A stretch of 36,395 bases of DNA, from positions 1 to 36,395 of the forward strand of contig CAZKLR010000001.1 in assembly GCA_964553695.1 (NCBI GenBank), given 5' to 3'. The notes under the pieces were generated by a model. The model searched no databases and was not told the DNA's origin. It worked only from the letters and a program-made list of their open reading frames with translations. Both the position numbers and the translations under genes were made by a program. Source of the stretch: an uncultured Candidatus Saccharibacteria bacterium (GTDB lineage: Bacteria > Patescibacteriota > Minisyncoccia > JAHIHE01 > JAGLIN01). Shown piece by piece: positions 1,802 through 16,585 of this stretch. The number at the start of each line of letters is the position of its first letter. Positions within the stretch are counted from its first letter, which is position 1.

Positions 1802-1937
1802 TTATTTTACCAAGGTAGGGGTTTATTTTCTCCTCCAGGTAATGAAAAGTATGGACTTATCACTTACAATTGACGACGAGCCTCCAGATACTTGTTTTTG
1901 GAAGGAAATCAACAAATGTTTATATAAACTTCGAAAA

Positions 1938-1977
1938 GAAGACTGAATTTTTATTTAGCCTTCTTTTTTGTTTTTTT
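1938..1977 (+). terminator. terminator-like hairpin inside the 5' leader of the ATP-grasp operon
   Basis: GAAGACTGA (1938-1946) pairs with TTAGCCTTC (1955-1963): 8 pairs including one G-U wobble, plus 1 mismatch. It is followed by TTTTTTGTTTTTTT. The stop codon TGA (1944-1946) of a 34-codon upstream ORF (1842-1946) lies in the 5' arm. Confidence 0.4.
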
Positions 1978-1998
1978 AAGATATTTTTAAGTTATATT

Positions 1999-4479
1999 AT
2001 GAAAAAGACAACAAAAAAAGTTACAAAATTAAAAGAAAAGATTGCCAGCAGGGTATTTTCTCGAAATATAAAAATTGAAGGGAGAACGCTTCTTTTGGTT
2101 AATACCGGATCAATTCGCAAGCGCTTTGTTTTGCAAAGGCTGAAAAAGTTAGGAATCAAATTAGTGGTACTCAATTGCGAACGCAATTGGGCGGAGCCAT
2201 ATGTGGATGAATGGATAATCGCCGATACTTCGCGTCATGCCGAGGCTTTGCGGGCGGTACAGGCGTTTATAAATAATCATCCGGAACGTAAAATCGAGGG
2301 TGTGTTTACCTTCTATGAAGATGACGTATTACTGACTTCCAAGATTGTAGACAAATTTGGATTTATAGGAATTCCTTATGCCGTGGCATCAAACGCGCGC
2401 AACAAAGATCTTTTTCGGAATTTTTGCGAGGAGAATGATATTTTATCTCCTTGGCATCGGAGAATTGAGTCTAAAAAGGACTTGGATTTTGTCCGGGAAA
2501 ACTTTACCTTCCCTGTTGTTATTAAGCCGGCTTACGGTTCTTCAAGTGCCTTTGTAGTAAAAGTTGAAATACCGGAGAATTTGGATGAAGAATTTGAATA
2601 TGTTAAAACTTCACTTTCGGAAACTGTGGAATCGGCGCTGGCGGACGGAAGGCAGATTATGATAGAAGAATATATTGATGGAAGCGAGGTAGACGTTGAT
2701 GTGCTGGTGCAAAACGGGATCGTTAAATTTTATTCCATTTCTGACAATAGTGCGACCCGCGAACCATTTTTTATTGAAACCTATCGGTTGACGCCCTCTA
2801 ATTTGCCGGACGATGATCAAGAAAATATTATTGCAACGGTGGAAGAGGTGCTGGAAAAAATGGGAGTGCGTGATGGATGTATTCATTTTGAGGCCAAACT
2901 CACTAAGCGGGGTACAGTGCCGATTGAGGCAAATTTGCGGATGGGGGGAGATGAAATGTATTCAAGCGTGAAAAAGGTTTGGGGTGTGGATTTGATTGAA
3001 GGTGCGGTCAAGATTGCTTTGGGCATATATATTCCTAAACTAAAAATAGAAGAACCCAAACAGTGTATAATGGCTAAAACTTTTCTTGCGGATCATTCCG
3101 GAGTTATAGTGCAGCTGGACATAGATCCGGAGTTGGAAGAGAAAGAACATATTGAAGAAGTGAAATTCTTCAAGAAAGTTGGAGATACCGTAATGGCGCC
3201 TCCGGAAGGGTATGAATATTTGGGGTGGATGACAGTTTCGGGGGATAATTCGGCTGAAGCGCAGGATAATATGGAAGAAGCGGAGAAGCTTATAGAATAC
3301 GAAGTGGCAAGATTTCATTCCGCTTCGTCGATTGGAAAGACGTTGAGAAAAGACCATTGTTCTTCTTCGTTTTTTAAGACCGAAGCTGCAAAGAAACGTG
3401 AGAAGATAGAAAAAATACAAAAGATGTCAATAAAGGATCAGCGGAATTTGCACATTGGAATAGTCTGTAATCTTTATGACAAGGATGGAGATGCAACTTT
3501 GGAAAAAGAACTGACTGTGATAGGGGTTAATATTCAGAATGCTTTGAAAGAGCGGGGATACAAAGTTAGCTTTTTCGATTTTAACGACGTTGAAAAGGCG
3601 TTTAATGATTTGAAAAATAGTGACGTGGATTTGGTGTTCAATGTTTGCGAGAGAATCAATAATTCCAGTCTTTTGGAGCCGCATGTCGCTTCGCTCTTGG
3701 ATGTCCTGGAAATTCCATATACCGGCTCCAACCCTTTTACTTTAAGTCTTTGCATTGATAAAATTCGCGTGAAAAAGCTTTTGAGTTATCACAAGATTCC
3801 GACTCCGGAATGGGATTATGTTTATTCTATGGATGACAACGTCAGAGATGACCTTAAATATCCTTTAATTGTCAAACCTGCCAATACGGATAATTCCATC
3901 GGTATCACAAATAATTCTGTCGTAACCAATGAAGAGCAGCTCAAGAAACAGTTGGAGTATGTAGTTAAGGAAATGGGAAGGCCGGCGCTTATCGAAGAGT
4001 ATATCGAAGGTGACGAATACGATGTTTCGATTATAGGAAGCGAGGAGGAAGATTTGCGTGTTTTACCGCTTTCTCGTTCTGTGTTTGATAAAATGCCTGA
4101 AGGCTATTGGCACATTTATCCTTTTGAATCGAAATATGGAGAAGAGGAGGTTTATAAAAGATATATATCCGTGCAGAGACCGCCAAAGAACATAAGCAAA
4201 AAATTGGAAGCGGTTATAAGCGAGATTGCCTTGGATACTTATAACATTTTGGATTGCCACGATTATGGAAGGGTGGAAATTAGAGTGGATAAAAATGGAA
4301 ATCCTTATGTTTTGGAGCTTAACCCCAATCCTACCATCAATTTGACATCATGTGTGCCTTCAGTGGCCAAACTGACGGGAATGGATTATGGCGATTTCTT
4401 GGAGGAAATTATCAGAATGGCGATAAAACGTTATAAGAACCGGCCGCCTTACTATCATTTACAGGCTAATTTAATTTAA
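1999..4479 (+). CDS. fused double ATP-grasp ligase (N-terminal amino-acid-ligase-like ATP-grasp plus C-terminal D-Ala-D-Ala-ligase-like module)
   Basis: The ORF track starts at TTG 1870, but the first 43 codons look like leader sequence, so I place the start at ATG 1999 (MKKTTKK). First module motifs: FPVVIKPAYGSSSAFVVKV, IMIEEYIDGSEVDVDVLV, IHFEAKLT..PIEANLRMGG. Second module, from about nt 3448: LHIGIVCN, LEIPYTGSN, DKIRVKKLL, YPLIVKPANTDNSIGI, ALIEEYIEGDEYDVSIIG, YGRVEIRVDKNGNPYVLELNPNP. The second set is typical of the Ddl family. Confidence 0.75.
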   Translation: MKKTTKKVTKLKEKIASRVFSRNIKIEGRTLLLVNTGSIRKRFVLQRLKKLGIKLVVLNCERNWAEPYVDEWIIADTSRHAEALRAVQAFINNHPERKIEGVFTFYEDDVLLTSKIVDKFGFIGIPYAVASNARNKDLFRNFCEENDILSPWHRRIESKKDLDFVRENFTFPVVIKPAYGSSSAFVVKVEIPENLDEEFEYVKTSLSETVESALADGRQIMIEEYIDGSEVDVDVLVQNGIVKFYSISDNSATREPFFIETYRLTPSNLPDDDQENIIATVEEVLEKMGVRDGCIHFEAKLTKRGTVPIEANLRMGGDEMYSSVKKVWGVDLIEGAVKIALGIYIPKLKIEEPKQCIMAKTFLADHSGVIVQLDIDPELEEKEHIEEVKFFKKVGDTVMAPPEGYEYLGWMTVSGDNSAEAQDNMEEAEKLIEYEVARFHSASSIGKTLRKDHCSSSFFKTEAAKKREKIEKIQKMSIKDQRNLHIGIVCNLYDKDGDATLEKELTVIGVNIQNALKERGYKVSFFDFNDVEKAFNDLKNSDVDLVFNVCERINNSSLLEPHVASLLDVLEIPYTGSNPFTLSLCIDKIRVKKLLSYHKIPTPEWDYVYSMDDNVRDDLKYPLIVKPANTDNSIGITNNSVVTNEEQLKKQLEYVVKEMGRPALIEEYIEGDEYDVSIIGSEEEDLRVLPLSRSVFDKMPEGYWHIYPFESKYGEEEVYKRYISVQRPPKNISKKLEAVISEIALDTYNILDCHDYGRVEIRVDKNGNPYVLELNPNPTINLTSCVPSVAKLTGMDYGDFLEEIIRMAIKRYKNRPPYYHLQANLI

Positions 4480-4491
4480 TAAGTAAAATAT

Positions 4492-5376
4492 ATGTTTGCT
4501 ATCAGGGTCGTTACTGAATTGGAGGAGGCCCGCAAAGTTTGGAATCTTTTGAGTCCTAAACAGAATATTTATGAGGACTGGGATTTTCGTTTTGTGTTTT
4601 ACAAGTATTTTAATTATCCGCTGCGGTTTTATGTTGGAGAAGAAAATGGGGAAATAATCGGACTGCTTGCTTTGCAGGAAAATACCAATGTCGAATGTCT
4701 GGAGTTTTTTGGCGGAAGTTTTATGGAAGACAATCATACTTTGATAAAGTCTGGTTTTGAAAAATATATCCCGGAATTCTACGAAGCCATTAAAGAAAGA
4801 GCTAAATTGGAAGATATTATATACGATAACGAATTTGTTCCTATGGATTTTCTGGAAAACAAATATGTAATAGATCTAAGGGGATTGAATAACATCGAAG
4901 ATTATCTTAAAAAAACCTTTAGTTCAAAGACTCGTTCGAAATTGCGCAAAAAGATAAAACGAATAGAAGCTCTAAAATTTGTTGTTGTTGATAATCGATA
5001 TGCGGATATAGATGCTTTAATGCAATTTAATCGAAAAAATTTTGGTGTGGAATCATCTTTTAACAAGCCTCATCGTCAGCAGATTTATCATGATCTAGCG
5101 GGTAGTAGTTTTAAAGTAGTGATGATTTCGGCTGAAATTGACGAAAAATTAGAGGGTGTGTCTTTTGCAATCAAGTTCGAAAATACTTTTGTCAGTTTAA
5201 ATGCAGGCGTGAATAAAACGGATTTTGAAGATTTGGGGAATGTTATGTTGCTCAAGCGAATAGAGAAAGCAATTAATTTGGGTTGTAACGTTTATGATGC
5301 TGGATTAAACGATTTGGGGTGGAAAAAACAATGGCATCTAAAGCAAATTCCACAATATAAGTTCTACTATGAGTAA
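4492..5376 (+). CDS. GNAT-fold acyltransferase, FemAB/BioF2-like (Acetyltransf_6) family
   Basis: 294-aa ORF starting 12 nt after the ATP-grasp gene. The C-terminal part (GVSFAIKFENTFVSLNAGVN..LGNVMLLKRIEKAINLGCNVYDAGLNDLGWKKQW) resembles the FemAB-like/CelD-like GNAT domain, which ends in G..x.YK..W. Confidence 0.55.
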   Translation: MFAIRVVTELEEARKVWNLLSPKQNIYEDWDFRFVFYKYFNYPLRFYVGEENGEIIGLLALQENTNVECLEFFGGSFMEDNHTLIKSGFEKYIPEFYEAIKERAKLEDIIYDNEFVPMDFLENKYVIDLRGLNNIEDYLKKTFSSKTRSKLRKKIKRIEALKFVVVDNRYADIDALMQFNRKNFGVESSFNKPHRQQIYHDLAGSSFKVVMISAEIDEKLEGVSFAIKFENTFVSLNAGVNKTDFEDLGNVMLLKRIEKAINLGCNVYDAGLNDLGWKKQWHLKQIPQYKFYYE

Positions 5377-11801: not shown

Positions 11802-12968
11802 ATGAAATTTTCTCAGAGTGCTTTAGGTATACAGGAATCGTTTTTAAACAAGTGGGATTCTTCCATAAAACTTAGAAAGGCTGCAGGTGAAGACATTCTG
11901 CAGTTCAATTTGGGCCAGCCGGATTTTGCCTGTCCGGATTTTGTCAAAAAAATTATTGAAGAAGTAAACCAAAAAGATGGAAATAATTTTTATAATCATA
12001 CGGCAGGAATCGAAGGCGCTCGTAAGGCGATTGTTAAATTTCAAAAAGAGGTTTTTAATTCTGAATATAGCAAGGACGAGGTTGTTATTACAAATGGAGC
12101 GAAAGAGGCGATTTTCTTGGCTTTTGCTGCTCTGCTAAATCCTCAGGATGAGGTTATTGCAATTGCGCCTCACTGGCCGACTTATATTGAAGCTGTTAAA
12201 TTTTTAGGAGGCAAGCCAATAGTTGTGGATGCCGGCAAGGATTTTCATTTGAATATTGAGGCTATAAAAAATGCAATCGGAGAAAAAACCAGGGCAATTG
12301 TGATTAATAGCCCCAATAATCCAAGCGGAACTATTTATGGCGAGGAAGAATTTTCAAAAATAGCCGAATTGGCCGTCCAAAATGATTTGGTTGTGGTTTC
12401 GGATGAAGTTTACGGTTTGACCATTTTTGATGGTAAAAAACATATTTCCATTGCCGATTTTCCCGGTATGAGAGAGAGAACAGTCTTGATTGACGGTTTT
12501 TCTAAAACACTCTCTATGACCGGTTACAGGCTTGGATATGCTTTGGCTTCTCGTGAAATCATCAGTAACATGGTGAAAGTAAAAAGCAATATCAATGGGA
12601 ATACAAATTCCTTCTTTCAGATGGTTTTGGAAGAAGCGATCTTAAATCATTTCGATGAGTTTACAGCTTTCGTTGATTTCTCAAGGGAAAAGTATCTCGA
12701 GAGAAGAGATTTTCTATGTGAAAAATTGGCAGAAATGGGAATTGAGTTTGCAAGGCCAGATGGAACTTTTTATGTTTTTGCCAGGATTCCGGAAAAAGTG
12801 GGAAAAAAGTCTCAAGAATTTGCGGAATATTTATTAGAGCAGACAGGAGTGGCGGTAGCGCCGGGAATATTTTTTGGAAAGAATTATGATAATTATTTCC
12901 GCATTTCTTTCGGCACGTCTATGGAAGATATAAAGAAAGGGATAGAAAGGATGAGAAAAATTTTATAG
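11802..12968 (+). CDS. pyridoxal-phosphate-dependent aminotransferase, class I/II (AspC-like; possibly aromatic/aspartate)
   Basis: 388 aa. Motifs: ITNGAKEAIFLAF, INSPNNPSGTIY, SDEVY, and the PLP-lysine motif GFSKTLSMTGYRLGY, then the RISF tail. Confidence 0.85.
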   Translation: MKFSQSALGIQESFLNKWDSSIKLRKAAGEDILQFNLGQPDFACPDFVKKIIEEVNQKDGNNFYNHTAGIEGARKAIVKFQKEVFNSEYSKDEVVITNGAKEAIFLAFAALLNPQDEVIAIAPHWPTYIEAVKFLGGKPIVVDAGKDFHLNIEAIKNAIGEKTRAIVINSPNNPSGTIYGEEEFSKIAELAVQNDLVVVSDEVYGLTIFDGKKHISIADFPGMRERTVLIDGFSKTLSMTGYRLGYALASREIISNMVKVKSNINGNTNSFFQMVLEEAILNHFDEFTAFVDFSREKYLERRDFLCEKLAEMGIEFARPDGTFYVFARIPEKVGKKSQEFAEYLLEQTGVAVAPGIFFGKNYDNYFRISFGTSMEDIKKGIERMRKIL

Positions 12969-13015
12969 CTTTATAAGGGGTGAATTGCCTTTTATCTTCG
13001 AAATAGTTTAGGCTA

Positions 13016-13055
13016 AAGGTCGGATTCTTCAACGCTTGAATCTGACCTTCTATTT
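13016..13055 (+). terminator. rho-independent terminator after the aminotransferase gene
   Basis: 12-bp stem AAGGTCGGATTC (13016-13027) / GAATCTGACCTT (13038-13049) with one G-U pair, followed by a weak T tract CTATTT. Confidence 0.5.
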
Positions 13056-13081
13056 GACAAACTTTTTGAAATGACTATAAT
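13054..13081 (+). promoter_or_regulatory. consensus sigma70 promoter of leader element A
   Basis: Exact TTGACA (13054-13059), 16-nt spacer, exact TATAAT (13076-13081). Confidence 0.65.
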
Positions 13082-13102
13082 ATCTTTATATTAAGCGAAA
13101 TC

Positions 13103-13165
13103 ATGAGCCACAACATAAGCAACAAATTCTATTTCTTTTATTTTTTTAGCCATCACTTGAGATAG
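13103..13165 (+). CDS. Phe/Tyr-rich leader peptide A (MSHNISNKFYFFYFFSHHLR)
   Basis: 20-codon ORF. Codons 9-15 are TTC TAT TTC TTT TAT TTT TTT. A paralogous peptide occurs at 14477-14530. The stop codon is embedded in the antiterminator strand. No clear SD. Confidence 0.5.
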   Translation: MSHNISNKFYFFYFFSHHLR

Positions 13166-13197
13166 GTCGCTTTTGCCGTAGCTTATAAAATGCGAAA

Positions 13198-13225
13198 CAG
13201 CCCATCTCAAGAGGGCTGATTTTTT
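13198..13225 (+). terminator. attenuator terminator of leader A
   Basis: CAGCCC (13198-13203) / GGGCTG (13213-13218), loop ATCTCAAGA, then ATTTTTT. The segment CCCATCTCAAG (13201-13211) is complementary to CTTGAGATAGG (13156-13166). Confidence 0.6.
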
Positions 13226-13370
13226 ATGTGCTTAATTTCGAGTTTTGATTTATAAAAATAAAAGCTCAAAAGTAAGCATAAGATTTCAACTTTACATCGT
13301 TTAAAGCTTACTGGTATTGTTCGTTAAAAAGAAAAATATAAAACAAAAATAAAATAGGGAACTGATAGAT

Positions 13371-13940
13371 ATGGAAAAAAATAAATATGGACAAGGCAGA
13401 ATGGTTATTTATATTGGTGAAAATCTACAACCTCATGTTATTAGATATTTTCTTGAGGGATTGGCAATGAAGGCAAACGGAGGAGGGATAATTTCTCCTG
13501 TTTCATTTACATTGTTAGATGCTTCTGGAAGAACATTGGAGGCTAGAGGATCTGTAGAGAAAATAAAAGAGATAGTAGACATCATATCTAATTCCATTTT
13601 TCTTGAAGACAGGATTTGTCTTTTTGGAGTTAAATCAGATAAAGCTATCCATTATTTCTCTTTTGCGGCTGATTACTTTAATAAGCGCACTGGTTCCGTG
13701 GGGTTCTGCAAAGACTATTTCCCCGGTTTTATAAAGATAAGAAAAGGTGCTACTGCTCTAGAAAAAGTAATGAGCGCATTTCGAGGGATTATTTTTGACC
13801 CTTTAGAAGTTATAGAAATAGACAAAAAGGGAAAAATAGTTTTATTACAACAGGAAATTGAAGAAAAGGAACTTACTAAAAAAAGGCCGATTGATAAATT
13901 TCAAGATGTGGCAAAAGGATTAATTTCTCAGGAGGTTTAA
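13371..13940 (+). CDS. hypothetical protein (189 aa), first gene of module A
   Basis: ORF with coding-like composition. It is tightly followed by the next gene. I recognise no motif. Confidence 0.55.
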   Translation: MEKNKYGQGRMVIYIGENLQPHVIRYFLEGLAMKANGGGIISPVSFTLLDASGRTLEARGSVEKIKEIVDIISNSIFLEDRICLFGVKSDKAIHYFSFAADYFNKRTGSVGFCKDYFPGFIKIRKGATALEKVMSAFRGIIFDPLEVIEIDKKGKIVLLQQEIEEKELTKKRPIDKFQDVAKGLISQEV

Positions 13941-13943
13941 ATA

Positions 13944-14387
13944 ATGAGCGAAATTCCGAAGCCTATTAGTTATTTTAATGATGTCTTTAGTCTTGTTAGT
14001 GAGATTCAACAGAAGCATAGTATTGCGAAAAAATCACAGGGAGCTAAAAAGGATAAATATAAAAAATGGGCCACAAAGCTATCATTTATTCTAGAAAGAA
14101 AAATAGAAGCAACAGAAAAACTAGGAATGGAGATGGCACATGTTAGGGCCATTCTTGTTAAAGCCAATAGAACTAAGAGTTGCGGTAATCTAGAATTATT
14201 TTCAGACTTAATTCAGATGGCTATAAATATAGCAAAAAAGACAAAACTATCAGAACAAATATTACTAAGGTGTTCAAGCGAGGATATTCTTGCTCTTCTG
14301 AAAGAAAATCCAGAAAGAGTGATAGTATTTAAGGCGGGGGAACTGATGAAAATAAAAATTAAGGAGGTGAAAAGCAATGAATTTTAA
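13944..14387 (+). CDS. hypothetical protein (147 aa), second gene of module A
   Basis: Strong SD AGGAGG lies 8 nt upstream of ATG 13944. The C-terminal about 60 aa are weakly similar to the 95-aa product of 14732-15019. Confidence 0.6.
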   Translation: MSEIPKPISYFNDVFSLVSEIQQKHSIAKKSQGAKKDKYKKWATKLSFILERKIEATEKLGMEMAHVRAILVKANRTKSCGNLELFSDLIQMAINIAKKTKLSEQILLRCSSEDILALLKENPERVIVFKAGELMKIKIKEVKSNEF

Positions 14388-14423: not shown

Positions 14424-14451
14424 TTGACAAGGTGTGATATTTTGTTATAAT
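14424..14451 (+). promoter_or_regulatory. consensus sigma70 promoter of leader element B
   Basis: Exact TTGACA (14424-14429), 16-nt spacer, exact TATAAT (14446-14451). Confidence 0.65.
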
Positions 14452-14476
14452 TTTTTTGATGTTTTAGATTATTATT

Positions 14477-14530
14477 ATGAACCACAATACAAACAACCAA
14501 TTCTTCTTTTTCTTTTTTAGCCAGCTCTAG
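14477..14530 (+). CDS. Phe-rich leader peptide B (MNHNTNNQFFFFFFSQL)
   Basis: 17-codon ORF. Codons 9-14 are TTC TTC TTT TTC TTT TTT. It is alignable with leader A at both peptide and nucleotide level. Confidence 0.5.
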   Translation: MNHNTNNQFFFFFFSQL

Positions 14531-14562
14531 GAGATAGGTCGTTTTTGTTGAAACTTTAAATG

Positions 14563-14591
14563 AATGGCCCATCTCAAGAGGCTGTTTTTTT
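14563..14591 (+). terminator. attenuator terminator of leader B
   Basis: AATGGCC (14563-14569) / GGCTGTT (14580-14586), 7 bp including two G-U pairs, loop CATCTCAAGA, then a T-run to 14591. It is weaker than copy A. The G-U pairs are valid only on the + strand. Confidence 0.5.
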
Positions 14592-14731
14592 ACGTTTCGG
14601 ATTCAGCTCTTAGAACTTTTAGAAAATTCCAGGAGGTAAATCTGAAATGTCGGTTTATCATTTTGTTCGTTTAAAAAACTACAAAAATAAGATTTATAAA
14701 AATATAAATAGAATTTACAGGTGAAACAAAT

Positions 14732-15019
14732 ATGCAAACTCAATCTTTGCAGAATACGGGTGTTGGAAAAGAGGAATGCTTAAAAAAAATAAAAAAGTTA
14801 CTTCAAGTAACAAAAGAGGCACAAGAAAAAAATCTTGTAGAAGTTTTTTATCGCTCCTTAAGTTTCGCAATTTATTACATGAAGGAGCTGAAGGTATGTG
14901 ATATTTTTCTTAATTCTGATCCTAAAGATTTTTGTGCTTTGTGCGGAGAAGAAGCAATAAATTTGGTAGTTTTTTCCGAAGAAGACAGTCAAATAAAACT
15001 GTGCATCAAAAAAGAATAA
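14732..15019 (+). CDS. hypothetical protein (95 aa), module B
   Basis: SD AGGTGA lies 7 nt upstream of the ATG. It is weakly similar to the C-terminal part of the 147-aa protein (..D..AL..E.....VVF.......IK..). Confidence 0.55.
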   Translation: MQTQSLQNTGVGKEECLKKIKKLLQVTKEAQEKNLVEVFYRSLSFAIYYMKELKVCDIFLNSDPKDFCALCGEEAINLVVFSEEDSQIKLCIKKE

Positions 15020-15028
15020 AAATAGTCT

Positions 15029-15080
15029 AAAAAGACATGGTTTGCAAAAAATGCAAATGGCCATGTCTTTTTCTTTTTTT
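15029..15080. terminator. bidirectional terminator between module B and pheA
   Basis: AAGACATGG/CCATGTCTT plus TTTGCA/TGCAAA helices around an AAAAA loop. An A-run lies upstream and TTTTTCTTTTTTT lies downstream. Confidence 0.7.
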
Positions 15081-15088
15081 GTACGATT

Positions 15089-15655
15089 TTATTTTTCCAC
15101 TGCCAAAAAACTGGTGAAATTGAATTTTAGGTCTTGTACTCCTTTTTCCAATACTTCCAGTCCATAAAGCTCAGCACAGCTCTCGGGAGCGAGGACGGCG
15201 GTACTATTTGGCAAGATTCCTTCGGAAAGGTCTTTGGCGGCTTTGGCGGTGTCGTCGCGCTGTTCAATGGCGGCGGATGGCCAGTTTCTTTTGATATACA
15301 TCTTGCATTGTTTGATCGCTTGGTCGTGAGAGGCAATGGTCTCAATGTTTTCTTTTTTGATTCCGGGTTTGACTAATAGGCAATGAATTACGGGAATCTC
15401 GAAAAGCTCCCGGATGTTAAATATATAGCGGCTCATCGCATATACGCTTTCGATAACTATGCCTCCGTTGGAGTTTTCGATGGGGAAAACACCCATATCT
15501 ATTTTTTTATTTTCCAGAGCATTAAGAACATTCTCTACGGAGATCAAATATTCAAGTTTGTAATTTTCAATTTTTTTGTTGCGGCAGTATTCCCTTGCGG
15601 CTTGTTCGGAAAAACTTCCGATTGCGCCGGAGACGCCGATTATTTTTTCTTGCAT
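15089..15655 (-). CDS. pheA: prephenate dehydratase, catalytic PDT domain only (no ACT domain)
   Basis: 188 aa. Motifs: IGVSGAIGSFSEQAAREY, FPIENSNGGIVIESV, IASHDQAIKQC. The length is too short for the usual C-terminal ACT regulatory domain. Confidence 0.8.
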   Translation of the reverse strand: MQEKIIGVSGAIGSFSEQAAREYCRNKKIENYKLEYLISVENVLNALENKKIDMGVFPIENSNGGIVIESVYAMSRYIFNIRELFEIPVIHCLLVKPGIKKENIETIASHDQAIKQCKMYIKRNWPSAAIEQRDDTAKAAKDLSEGILPNSTAVLAPESCAELYGLEVLEKGVQDLKFNFTSFLAVEK

Positions 15656-16410
15656 ATCTTCTTATCTAGTTTATTAAGTTCTTTCAGAAATTTATTTCTG
15701 GTTTTTGCGGCATAAGGATTCAAGGTTTGCATATCAAGGAAAAGCTGCTCGGGATCATCTTTGACTTCCAAAATGATGTCTTTGAGTCGTTTGGCCGAAG
15801 GTGTGGTGAAAGCAAAGCCTTCAAGAGGTATGGTTTGGGCGGCTGCTCTTGAAAAGAAATGAGTCAGTGATTGTGTGTAGGCCATTATTTCGTCATGTTT
15901 TTTCGCCGATACTTCTTTTATATCAAGTCCCATATGCTTGAAAATTGATTTTATTTCTTGGTAACTTTTCTTTTTTATTCTTTCAGGGCATAGGACAATT
16001 TGAAGATCTTTGATTCCTTTTTTTCCGCTTTGCGGACCGAAAAGCGGGTGAGTACCAAGAATCTGCGCGTCTTTCGGGAGTATTTTTTTCATTTCTTTCA
16101 AAGGAAAAACTTTTACCGAACAGACATCAAAAACTATACAGTTTTTTTTGATTTTGCTGCGGATATCATTTAATACGCTTGTAATCTCTGAAATAGGCAT
16201 AGAGAGCATTATGATGTCTTGCTGGCAAACTTCTTCCATTGAAGAATAAGTGACCCCCAGCCTTTTTGCCGTTTCACTTTTATTGCTTTTGCTGGTAATA
16301 TAAATTTCCGAGAAAAAAGGTTTAAGATGCGGAATAAAAAACTCAGCAAATTGTCCTATTCCGATGATGCCTAAAGTTTTTTTATTGCCTTTTGTTGTAT
16401 TATTTGTCAT
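15640..16410 (-). CDS. tyrA: prephenate/arogenate dehydrogenase
   Basis: 256 aa. N-terminal Rossmann motif LGIIGIGQFAEFF, then DVCSVK and GTHPLFGP motifs. It overlaps the pheA start by 16 nt. Confidence 0.75.
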   Translation of the reverse strand: MTNNTTKGNKKTLGIIGIGQFAEFFIPHLKPFFSEIYITSKSNKSETAKRLGVTYSSMEEVCQQDIIMLSMPISEITSVLNDIRSKIKKNCIVFDVCSVKVFPLKEMKKILPKDAQILGTHPLFGPQSGKKGIKDLQIVLCPERIKKKSYQEIKSIFKHMGLDIKEVSAKKHDEIMAYTQSLTHFFSRAAAQTIPLEGFAFTTPSAKRLKDIILEVKDDPEQLFLDMQTLNPYAAKTRNKFLKELNKLDKKICKKK

Positions 16411-16585
16411 TCTTTTGATTCTTAAAGAAGAAAATTGCCATTATTAGCCAGAAGCCGCAAATAATAATCGTTATAATTAGGTCTGCCGGTTTGGAAAAGT
16501 CTGGCGGGGTGGAAATAAATAAAGCCAAGAGCAGTATAAACCAAATTGCTTCTAGAAGATAATATGACTTTGATATTTTTTTCAT
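16400..16585 (-). CDS. small hypothetical 2-TM membrane protein
   Basis: 61-aa ORF with two hydrophobic helices. It overlaps the tyrA start by 11 nt. Confidence 0.35.
   Translation of the reverse strand: MKKISKSYYLLEAIWFILLLALFISTPPDFSKPADLIITIIICGFWLIMAIFFFKNQKNDK

Follow-up and report, generated by a model that had tools for sequence, protein, structure and literature searches.

A family of candidate leader-peptide attenuators with aromatic codon runs in Paceibacterota-type genomes

Bacteria of the candidate phyla radiation (CPR) combine very small genomes with few recognised regulators and a limited capacity for amino-acid biosynthesis, and to our knowledge almost nothing is known about how they regulate their genes. 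What do two small paralogous units, each with a run of aromatic codons between a promoter and a terminator, do in the chromosome of such an organism? We analyzed a 36,395-nucleotide (nt) stretch of DNA (the window; GenBank assembly GCA_964553695.1, contig CAZKLR010000001.1, from an uncultured Candidatus Saccharibacteria bacterium), whose nearest relatives in our genome collection are metagenome-assembled genomes of Candidatus Paceibacterota, and examined two forward-strand units in it, copy A (13054-13225) and its paralog copy B (14424-14591). A preliminary description of copy A, read from the letters alone, had proposed that a leader peptide rich in Phe and Tyr codons governs an intrinsic terminator. 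Comparison across related genomes points to a real, previously undescribed family of leader-peptide attenuators, a known mechanism in a new lineage, and we estimate a probability of roughly 70% that copies A and B are ribosome-mediated transcription attenuators sensing charged aromatic tRNA, a reading that draws on comparative analysis and folding models. The supply proposed to be sensed is that of Phe and Tyr in copy A and of Phe in copy B.

Both units open with a consensus promoter and a very short open reading frame (ORF), and the features first read in copy A are present in the sequence as described. Its promoter (13054-13081) consists of TTGACA (13054-13059), a 16-nt spacer and TATAAT (13076-13081) and agrees with the consensus at 12 of 12 positions, as does that of copy B, which has the same spacer length and a TG extension (14424-14451). 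The window holds exactly two perfect TTGACA-N16-18-TATAAT promoters on either strand, those of copies A and B, and shuffled sequence predicts 0.01, so the units are not a product of chance. Leader ORF A, MSHNISNKFYFFYFFSHHLR and a stop (13103-13165), has the 20 codons originally noted, from ATG at 13103 to TAG at 13163-13165, and codons 9-15 (TTC TAT TTC TTT TAT TTT TTT; 13127-13147) encode five Phe and two Tyr, so that all seven are aromatic. Leader ORF B, MNHNTNNQFFFFFFSQL and a stop (14477-14530), carries a run of six aromatic codons, all Phe (14501-14518), and belongs to a type also found in the relatives L031, L033 and L035. Across the family the mini-ORFs are 17-20 codons long, with a predicted 5′ untranslated region (UTR) of about 14-18 nt (about 14 in copy A). 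A gene on the minus strand was considered and rejected, as the minus-strand ORFs of copies A and B differ in frame.

To compare the units across genomes, we gathered the loci of relatives by synteny and scanned them with an nhmmer profile of the unit. The search of related genomes called for in the preliminary description returned 16 distinct aromatic-type copies with terminator, and three aberrant ones, in 13 related Paceibacterota-type genomes, and the profile found the unit in every syntenic relative whose contig reaches beyond AT1, a class I/II aminotransferase gene (11802-12968, plus strand; Pfam PF00155, E = 2e-68). Nearly all copies have TTGACA and TATAAT at a spacing of 16-17 nt; one-base variants of the -10 element occur in L001 (TACAAT), L045 (TATACT) and L046 (TATGCT), and TTGACA is present in every copy with its own promoter, the second copy of a tandem pair having none. 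Three peptide types recur, that of copy A (xxxxSNK-FYFFYF[FY]-SHxLR-stop), a second type (NYNxSN-WFFFYF-SRHLR-stop) and that of copy B (xxxxNNQ-FFFFFF-SQL-stop), and more distant forms of the run read SFYFYFW (L044), FFFFSFF (L045) and WLFFDFF (L046). In 14 of the 16 copies, 6-7 codons in a stretch of seven are aromatic; the counts for L045 and L046 are 6/7 and 5/7, respectively. The run sits at a fixed position relative to the downstream AGCC element in all copies, ending 0-1 codon ahead of (A/G)GCC (AGCT in L046). An exact-pattern scan of the genome collection gave no match, and a relaxed-pattern scan of Joint Genome Institute (JGI) metagenomes gave two, both rejected as chance matches inside high-GC coding regions.

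The substitution pattern in these copies is of the kind left by translation. The ATG is invariant across all aligned copies and ORF indels measure 3, 6 or 12 nt. Within the aromatic block of copy A-type units we counted at least 8 nucleotide changes, of which 6 are synonymous third-position T/C exchanges and 7 preserve an aromatic residue; between peptide types, changes in the run are swaps among F, Y and W. We read the mini-ORF as translated because of this combination of an invariant start, in-frame indels and synonymous or aromatic-preserving changes, and the comparative signature in 16 copies from 13 genomes thus says yes to the leader peptide first proposed, translation in vivo being what we infer from it. 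The eight N-terminal codons are free to vary in amino acid, as expected for a leader peptide whose exact sequence is unimportant. Nucleotide-level conservation of the C-terminal codons persists despite a shift of frame, the copy B ORF stopping 3 nt before GAGATAGG, and because these codons are kept where the frame differs this conservation acts at the level of RNA.

Several further units in the relatives depart from this pattern. L002 holds a degenerate copy (L002b; 13795-13954) that retains the promoter, the GGGATAGG motif and a terminator-like end, with its ORF shortened to MRAISPPSI and a stop and the aromatic run gone; it lies upstream of a 137-residue orphan gene. In L031, whose AT1 is 94% identical to that of the window, two tandem copies (12994-13287) carry Asn-rich ORFs, MQYTNNNNLNFPNHLR and MIFSKSNNNNNNFFRHHLR, each followed by a stop, on the same RNA scaffold; they precede a 373-residue orphan and an M28-like peptidase, and the insertion is absent from the window. 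The three-state fold pattern described below is absent from these Asn-run copies in footprint folding, and they may be decaying or working differently; re-targeting to asparagine was considered and rejected, since the alternative-fold pattern is absent and the downstream gene is an orphan. A different small unit stands directly after AT1 in L002 (11314-11520), L003 (5176-5390) and L044 (7527-7720) and is absent from the window. It comprises a TTGACA promoter, a 28-30 codon ORF (MSFSRKTNMHLAAWATYGTVGFVLSSKVFA with a stop, and variants) and a strong terminator, followed by orphan genes, and may be another leader or encode a small membrane protein.

At the level of RNA, pairing and covariation were measured on a 15-copy alignment, and the helix between regions 2 and 3 (2:3) was retested with the three most distant copies added. 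The stem CAGCCC (13198-13203)/GGGCTG (13213-13218, region 4), taken from the start as an intrinsic terminator, forms a 6-bp hairpin (13198-13218; -11.4 kcal/mol) followed by a U tract of A and then T6 (13220-13225), and its covariation in relatives argues for that assignment. In the alignment 96.7% of cells are paired and three of the six pairs show compensatory changes, for example CAGCCC/GGGCTG versus CAGCCT/AGGCTG, giving a covariation score of 0.324; shuffles gave 0.251, with 2 of 500 attaining the observed value, and slid controls did not exceed 0.10. A hairpin with a U tract was found in all copies; the tract is T6-T8 in aligned aromatic and Asn-type copies and T5 in L002b, and the short hairpin is predicted at -6.8 to -12.8 kcal/mol in the first two peptide types and at -4.1 to -7.7 kcal/mol in the copy B type.

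Competing with this terminator is a long-range helix between region 2, CTTGAGATAGG (13156-13166), which forms its 5′ strand and includes the stop codon TAG, and region 3, CCCATCTCAAG (13201-13211), which is shared with the 5′ arm of the terminator. The two are complementary at the positions originally given, with one A/C mismatch (13164/13203). GAGATAGG is nearly invariant and the pairing of region 2 with region 3 (CCYRTCTC) involves 91.4% of cells; in L045 and L046 an A-U pair becomes C-G, changing GAGA/TCTC to GCGA/TCGC. With a covariation score of 0.141 against 0.094 for shuffles, reached by 6 of 500, the 2:3 helix is thinly supported by compensatory change, and the proposal that helix and terminator are mutually exclusive appears sound: they share region 3, and in computed folds both alternatives can form in each of the 16 copies. 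Directly after the aromatic run lies a further element, region 1′ (AGCC, 13148-13151), which can pair with GGCT at 13214-13217; 95% of cells are paired in the 15 copies. The consensus computed by RNAalifold is a single long hairpin that includes AGCC/GGCU, and because of this pairing the long-range helix can close on the U tract. The helix that the preliminary description called an antiterminator therefore does compete with the terminator, but is itself predicted to be terminator-like unless a ribosome covers AGCC. Predicted energies are -15 to -22 kcal/mol for the 2:3 helix alone and -22 to -30 kcal/mol for the long hairpin.

Copy B is built in the same way. Its switch (14519-14591) places AGCC/CAGCTCT (14519-14528) and GAGATAGG (14531-14538) opposite CCCATCTC (14568-14575) and GGCTG (14580-14584), a U tract of T7 follows (14585-14591), and the minimum-free-energy fold is one long hairpin terminating at that tract. 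In the related copy L035b, GGCTG has changed to GGTTG and both partners have compensated, CAGC becoming CAAC and TGGCC becoming TGACC, as expected if both alternative helices are used. The spacer of copy A (13167-13197) has a conserved 5′ part, TCGCTTTTGCC. As noted earlier, a small hairpin, TCGCTTTT/AAAATGCGA, does exist there between the two helices, but is not kept in relatives and was rejected as a conserved element, being specific to copy A in both the alignment and the RNAalifold consensus. Also rejected was a consistent 1:2 hairpin joining aromatic codons to region 2, which occurs only in copies with TTC TAT TTC. The conserved GGTCGYTTTTG after region 2 could, as pure conjecture, be an RNA polymerase pause signal.

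To model how a ribosome might choose between these folds, we folded the RNA 3′ of its footprint for each A-site codon, with footprint edges of +10 to +16 nt. Thermodynamic folding gave the same succession of states in 16/16 copies and at all footprints, a long hairpin (L), an unpaired state and a short hairpin (S). With the A site at codons 1 to about 12, the model predicts the long hairpin closed on the U tract; once the A site reaches the final 2-3 aromatic codons, the GGCUG 3′ arm is left unpaired, an interval that reaches 1-2 codons beyond the run in Phe-only copies; and from the next codons through the stop the short terminator (3:4) forms.

These states suggest a three-way decision. The consensus sigma-70-type promoter would produce a short leader RNA whose 17-20 codon ORF is translated, and the fold would be chosen by the position of the leading ribosome as RNA polymerase arrives at the U tract. 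If no ribosome is present, or if the ribosome remains further upstream, region 2 (GAGAUAGG, which overlaps the stop codon or directly follows it) would pair with region 3, and the added AGCC:GGCU pairs would extend this helix into a long hairpin that abuts the U tract and terminates transcription. Default termination without translation is the behaviour known as super-attenuation in the trp operon. A ribosome whose A site halts within the final 2-3 aromatic codons would cover AGCC and leave region 2 free; the 2:3 helix would then tie up the terminator's 5′ arm, GGCUG would stay single-stranded, and a second hairpin (hairpin 2, below) and the downstream genes would be transcribed. A ribosome at the stop codon would cover region 2, allowing the short 3:4 hairpin to form and terminate. 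Termination at 13225, the response to Phe or Tyr limitation and polymerase pausing to synchronise with the ribosome are steps that this scheme would require. The earlier idea that a ribosome at the stop codon masks region 2 and so favours the terminator agrees with the folding model in all 16 copies; the accompanying idea that stalling on the Phe codons gives readthrough does so for the last 2-3 aromatic codons, but stalls on the first four are predicted to terminate.

Several observations weigh against attenuation by aromatic tRNA charging. Termination by stalls on the first four aromatic codons of the run, as modelled, is odd for a starvation sensor. The mini-ORFs have no Shine-Dalgarno sequence, and nearby and downstream genes have AGGAGG, AGGTG or GGAG. 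Covariation in the 2:3 helix amounts to about one event, and its invariance otherwise could reflect a protein-binding site. The short hairpin of copy B, TGGCC/GGCTG, is weak at -4.1 kcal/mol. The genes that the window's units would control are orphans for which no connection with aromatic amino acids could be detected, and a weak promoter-like site (9/12; 13291-13320) makes some independent downstream transcription possible. Finally, a permissive Rfam search gave hits at chance level only, among them the Phe_leader model (RF01859), which scores 19.9 bits (E = 3.4; 13116-13225) where its gathering threshold is 55.

The alternative that survives best, although we consider it unlikely, is that the units are stand-alone genes for small aromatic peptides, with a leaky terminator setting the ratio of peptide to accessory protein as in lantibiotic structural genes. 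A consensus promoter, an ORF under selection and its own terminator in each unit would all fit such genes, as would downstream genes that are fast-evolving orphans of a variable island and the presence at the same site in L002, L003 and L044 of another small ORF (MSFSRKTNMH...) with promoter and terminator. What the family keeps, however, is aromatic character and position and not sequence (FYFFYFF, WFFFYF, FFFFFF, FFFFSFF, WLFFDFF), and the C-terminal codons are conserved as strands of RNA helices even in the frame of copy B. Peptides of 17-20 residues without a signal peptide are also too short to span a membrane, transporters and modifying enzymes are not regular neighbours, and the association with aminotransferase and prephenate genes would be left unexplained.

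Less probable still is a switch operated in trans, by an RNA-binding protein or small RNA that recognises GAGAUAGGU, with the ORF incidental or modulatory. The invariance of GAGATAGG(T), well beyond what pairing needs and across reading frames, is what one would expect of a binding site, the ORF lacks a Shine-Dalgarno sequence, and the Asn-type copies of L031 retain the motif and not the alternative folding. Yet a triple constraint from coding, 2:3 pairing and 3:4 pairing can account for the invariance of the motif, no candidate RNA-binding protein gene is conserved beside the units, and an incidental ORF fits poorly with the coding signature (invariant ATG, in-frame indels, synonymous third-position changes) and with an aromatic run whose position with respect to AGCC is constant throughout the copies. 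Very improbable is a nascent-peptide arrest element of the TnaC, SecM or Erm-leader type that senses a free small molecule or the state of the ribosome: the short conserved ORF with its stop codon inside a regulatory helix would suit one, and polar, aromatic and basic peptides can in general contact the exit tunnel, but the order and identity of residues vary while a run of one codon class is kept, and the modelled readthrough interval is that codon run and not the stop codon. A chance origin of the units is excluded by the rarity of their promoters together with the family in relatives.

With attenuation as the preferred reading, we turned to the genes that would be controlled. Copy A is followed on the plus strand by genes for proteins of 189 (13371-13940) and 147 residues (13944-14387) and copy B by a gene for a protein of 95 residues (14732-15019), all orphans. 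None of the three has a Pfam or NCBIfam match, and searches of PHROG, PADLOC and Protein Data Bank sequences were equally without match; a word-indexed homologue search returned self-matches only. A full HMMER search among 1.8 billion representative proteins found just two true remote homologues of the 189-residue protein; a third candidate, P0041, a 1004-residue Cys-rich tandem-repeat protein matching residues 8-56 of it 14 times, was judged a compositional or repeat artefact. A single-sequence AlphaFold model made in the search for a function of the downstream genes is not usable (mean predicted local distance difference test score 41), and profile-profile comparison among the downstream families gave marginal hints of at most 73% probability. 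The downstream proteins show nothing unusual in their content of aromatic residues. The orphan families behind the leaders are fast-evolving and positionally conserved, as exemplified by the 95-residue protein, which stands behind the Phe-only leader in the window, L031 and L035 and is 55-56% identical to the gene product behind the same leader type in L035.

In several relatives the leader stands directly before metabolic genes. It lies immediately upstream of a second aminotransferase gene in L001 and L041 (the two share 39% identity) and of AT1 itself in L045, where the variable island is absent, and in L046 it precedes genes for an ATP-grasp enzyme (389 residues) and an M20 peptidase, divergent from AT1. 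The leader is thus linked directly to aromatic metabolism in three genomes, and in the window by position only; all the leaders are located inside or beside a cluster of aminotransferase, prephenate dehydratase and prephenate dehydrogenase genes. In the more distant L045 (9176-9425) and L046 (4613-4672), whose AT1 is 50-52% identical, AT1 directly faces the prephenate dehydratase gene in convergent orientation, and both the variable island and the prephenate dehydrogenase gene are absent. Their lack of an island suggests that the variable region and the leader cassettes it carries expanded within a single subclade.

Between the terminator and the downstream gene we found no promoter of consensus strength, by scanning copy A and by eye in the relatives. 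Directly 3′ of the U tract stands a second conserved structure with very strong covariation, hairpin 2 (13227-13280 in copy A, plus strand), for which RNAalifold predicts 21 pairs, 12 of them compensatory, from 9 copies; its counterpart in copy B (14592-14650, plus strand) has 25 pairs, 5 compensatory, from 4 copies. Hairpin 2 is not a terminator because it has no U tract; possible roles are stabilisation or processing of the readthrough mRNA, or service as a second switch. The 3′ flank GTAAGC (13272-13277) in copy A can alternatively pair with GCTTAC (13306-13311). Further downstream, the window (13300-13370 and 14660-14731) and the homologous 5′ UTRs share a conserved TTG(T/C)TC(A/G)TT motif, after which an extended A-rich tract leads up to the downstream gene's Shine-Dalgarno sequence; the motif is not convincing as a promoter.

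The genomic setting of copies A and B adds an aspect that the preliminary description, correct in placing genes of unknown function downstream, had overlooked: their neighbours belong to Phe and Tyr synthesis. Both copies lie within 2.1 kb, with AT1 on one side and, on the other, convergent genes for prephenate dehydratase (15089-15655, minus strand; PF00800, E = 3e-44) and prephenate dehydrogenase (15640-16410, minus strand; PF02153/PF20463), then topA. Prephenate dehydratase, prephenate dehydrogenase and an aminotransferase carry out the terminal steps of Phe and Tyr synthesis. The upstream sequence of AT1 in the window holds a weaker promoter of its own and no leader, and the two prephenate genes, which overlap by 16 nt (15640-15655), have neither a leader nor an obvious promoter in front. 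A palindrome low in GC, AAAAAGACATGG...CCATGTCTTTTT (15028-15070), separates the 95-residue gene from the prephenate dehydratase gene; bordered by A and T runs, it looks like a bidirectional terminator, and a 61-codon hydrophobic ORF (16400-16585) lies between the dehydrogenase gene and topA, overlapping the dehydrogenase start.

The window as a whole is chromosomal, low in GC and rich in housekeeping genes (topA, dprA, pth, hisS, ftsA, ftsZ, nrdD), and no tRNA or transfer-messenger RNA was found in its 36 kb. Near its start an 869-residue protein (1870-4479) combines two ATP-grasp modules, with an L-amino-acid-ligase C-terminal domain and a D-Ala-D-Ala-ligase C-terminus, and is followed (4492-5376) by a FemAB-like GNAT protein and DUF2090, an order kept in all syntenic loci. 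An attC, integron-like or transposable-element origin of the units was rejected: no attC-type R″/R′ core motifs were seen by eye in the sequences read, no dedicated search having been made, and no integrase turned up among the genes scanned or Pfam-annotated, which did not include every ORF of the window and loci.

How do these units relate to known attenuators? No Rfam family reaches its gathering score anywhere in the window, so the pheL/pheA and pheST-type architecture originally recognised in copy A is one of shared logic, without homology at the level of Rfam. The pheL-pheA leader-peptide attenuator is known from E. coli and gamma-proteobacteria (PMC3082878). Like that system (RF01859; PMC3082878), the units described here have a short ORF with a Phe run and a terminator whose 5′ arm has an alternative upstream partner, and where pheL-pheA controls phenylalanine synthesis, the leaders of L001, L041 and L045 precede a prephenate-pathway aminotransferase. 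They differ from it in having no detectable homology, in the Tyr codons among the Phe codons of copy A and the Trp codons of some relatives, in an ORF with no Shine-Dalgarno sequence and a very short 5′ UTR, in a second conserved hairpin beyond the U tract and in several paralogous copies per locus. The extra AGCC/GGCU pairing would, on the folding model, make the competing helix the default terminator here, unlike in pheL-pheA, and the window's leaders precede orphans while its prephenate dehydratase gene lies on the opposite strand, leaderless.

The wider class of classical leaders offers the same mixture of likeness and difference. As in pheM-pheST, trpL (RF00513), hisL (RF00514) and the leu, thr and ilv leaders, the position of the ribosome on cognate codons would pick terminator or antiterminator, and termination would be the default without translation, but the units form a separate family in sequence and structure. 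One long coaxial hairpin would give default termination here, not separate 1:2 and 3:4 hairpins, and a classical 1:2-type pairing (UUCUAUUUC with GAGAUAGG) occurs in some copies only. The Lactococcus Leu/Phe leader (RF01743) and the predictions in Actinobacteria (PMC1262725) are likewise non-proteobacterial and were found by comparative genomics; unlike them, the present family belongs to a Paceibacterota/CPR lineage and has no Rfam match of useful score. That 2005 survey reported no conserved Phe or Tyr attenuator in Actinobacteria (PMC1262725). TnaC-type leaders (PMC8429421) also use a short peptide to control downstream termination in response to an aromatic amino acid, but TnaC responds to free tryptophan by means of particular conserved residues and blocks Rho (PMC8429421), whereas the units have a codon run and an intrinsic terminator. 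A full-text literature search found neither leader-peptide attenuation nor comparable cis-regulatory RNAs described in CPR bacteria or Patescibacteria, in line with the earlier impression that such control had not been reported in CPR-like genomes.

If the units work as proposed, CPR bacteria would offer a clear example of classical translation-coupled attenuation, implying coupled transcription and translation and intrinsic termination there, and the terminal Phe/Tyr pathway would be marked as supply-regulated. A bolder extension, which we regard as distinctly tentative, is that in these reduced and probably host-dependent Paceibacterota the paralogous leaders serve as a common switch for the hypervariable orphan island and the aminotransferases. 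On this extension the cell would read its supply of Phe, Tyr and Trp, probably obtained from a host or community, and the signal would turn on lineage-specific, non-biosynthetic genes, for example for scavenging or host interaction. The switch would be an unusual three-state device, and versions with other codon runs, such as the tandem Asn-run copies of L031, would be derivatives re-targeted from it. The family would also give a functional handle on the orphan families, which on the folding model are apparently made when aromatic aminoacyl-tRNAs are short, and its 16 or more natural variants with different codon runs form a series for studying how the position of a ribosome is turned into a decision about transcription.

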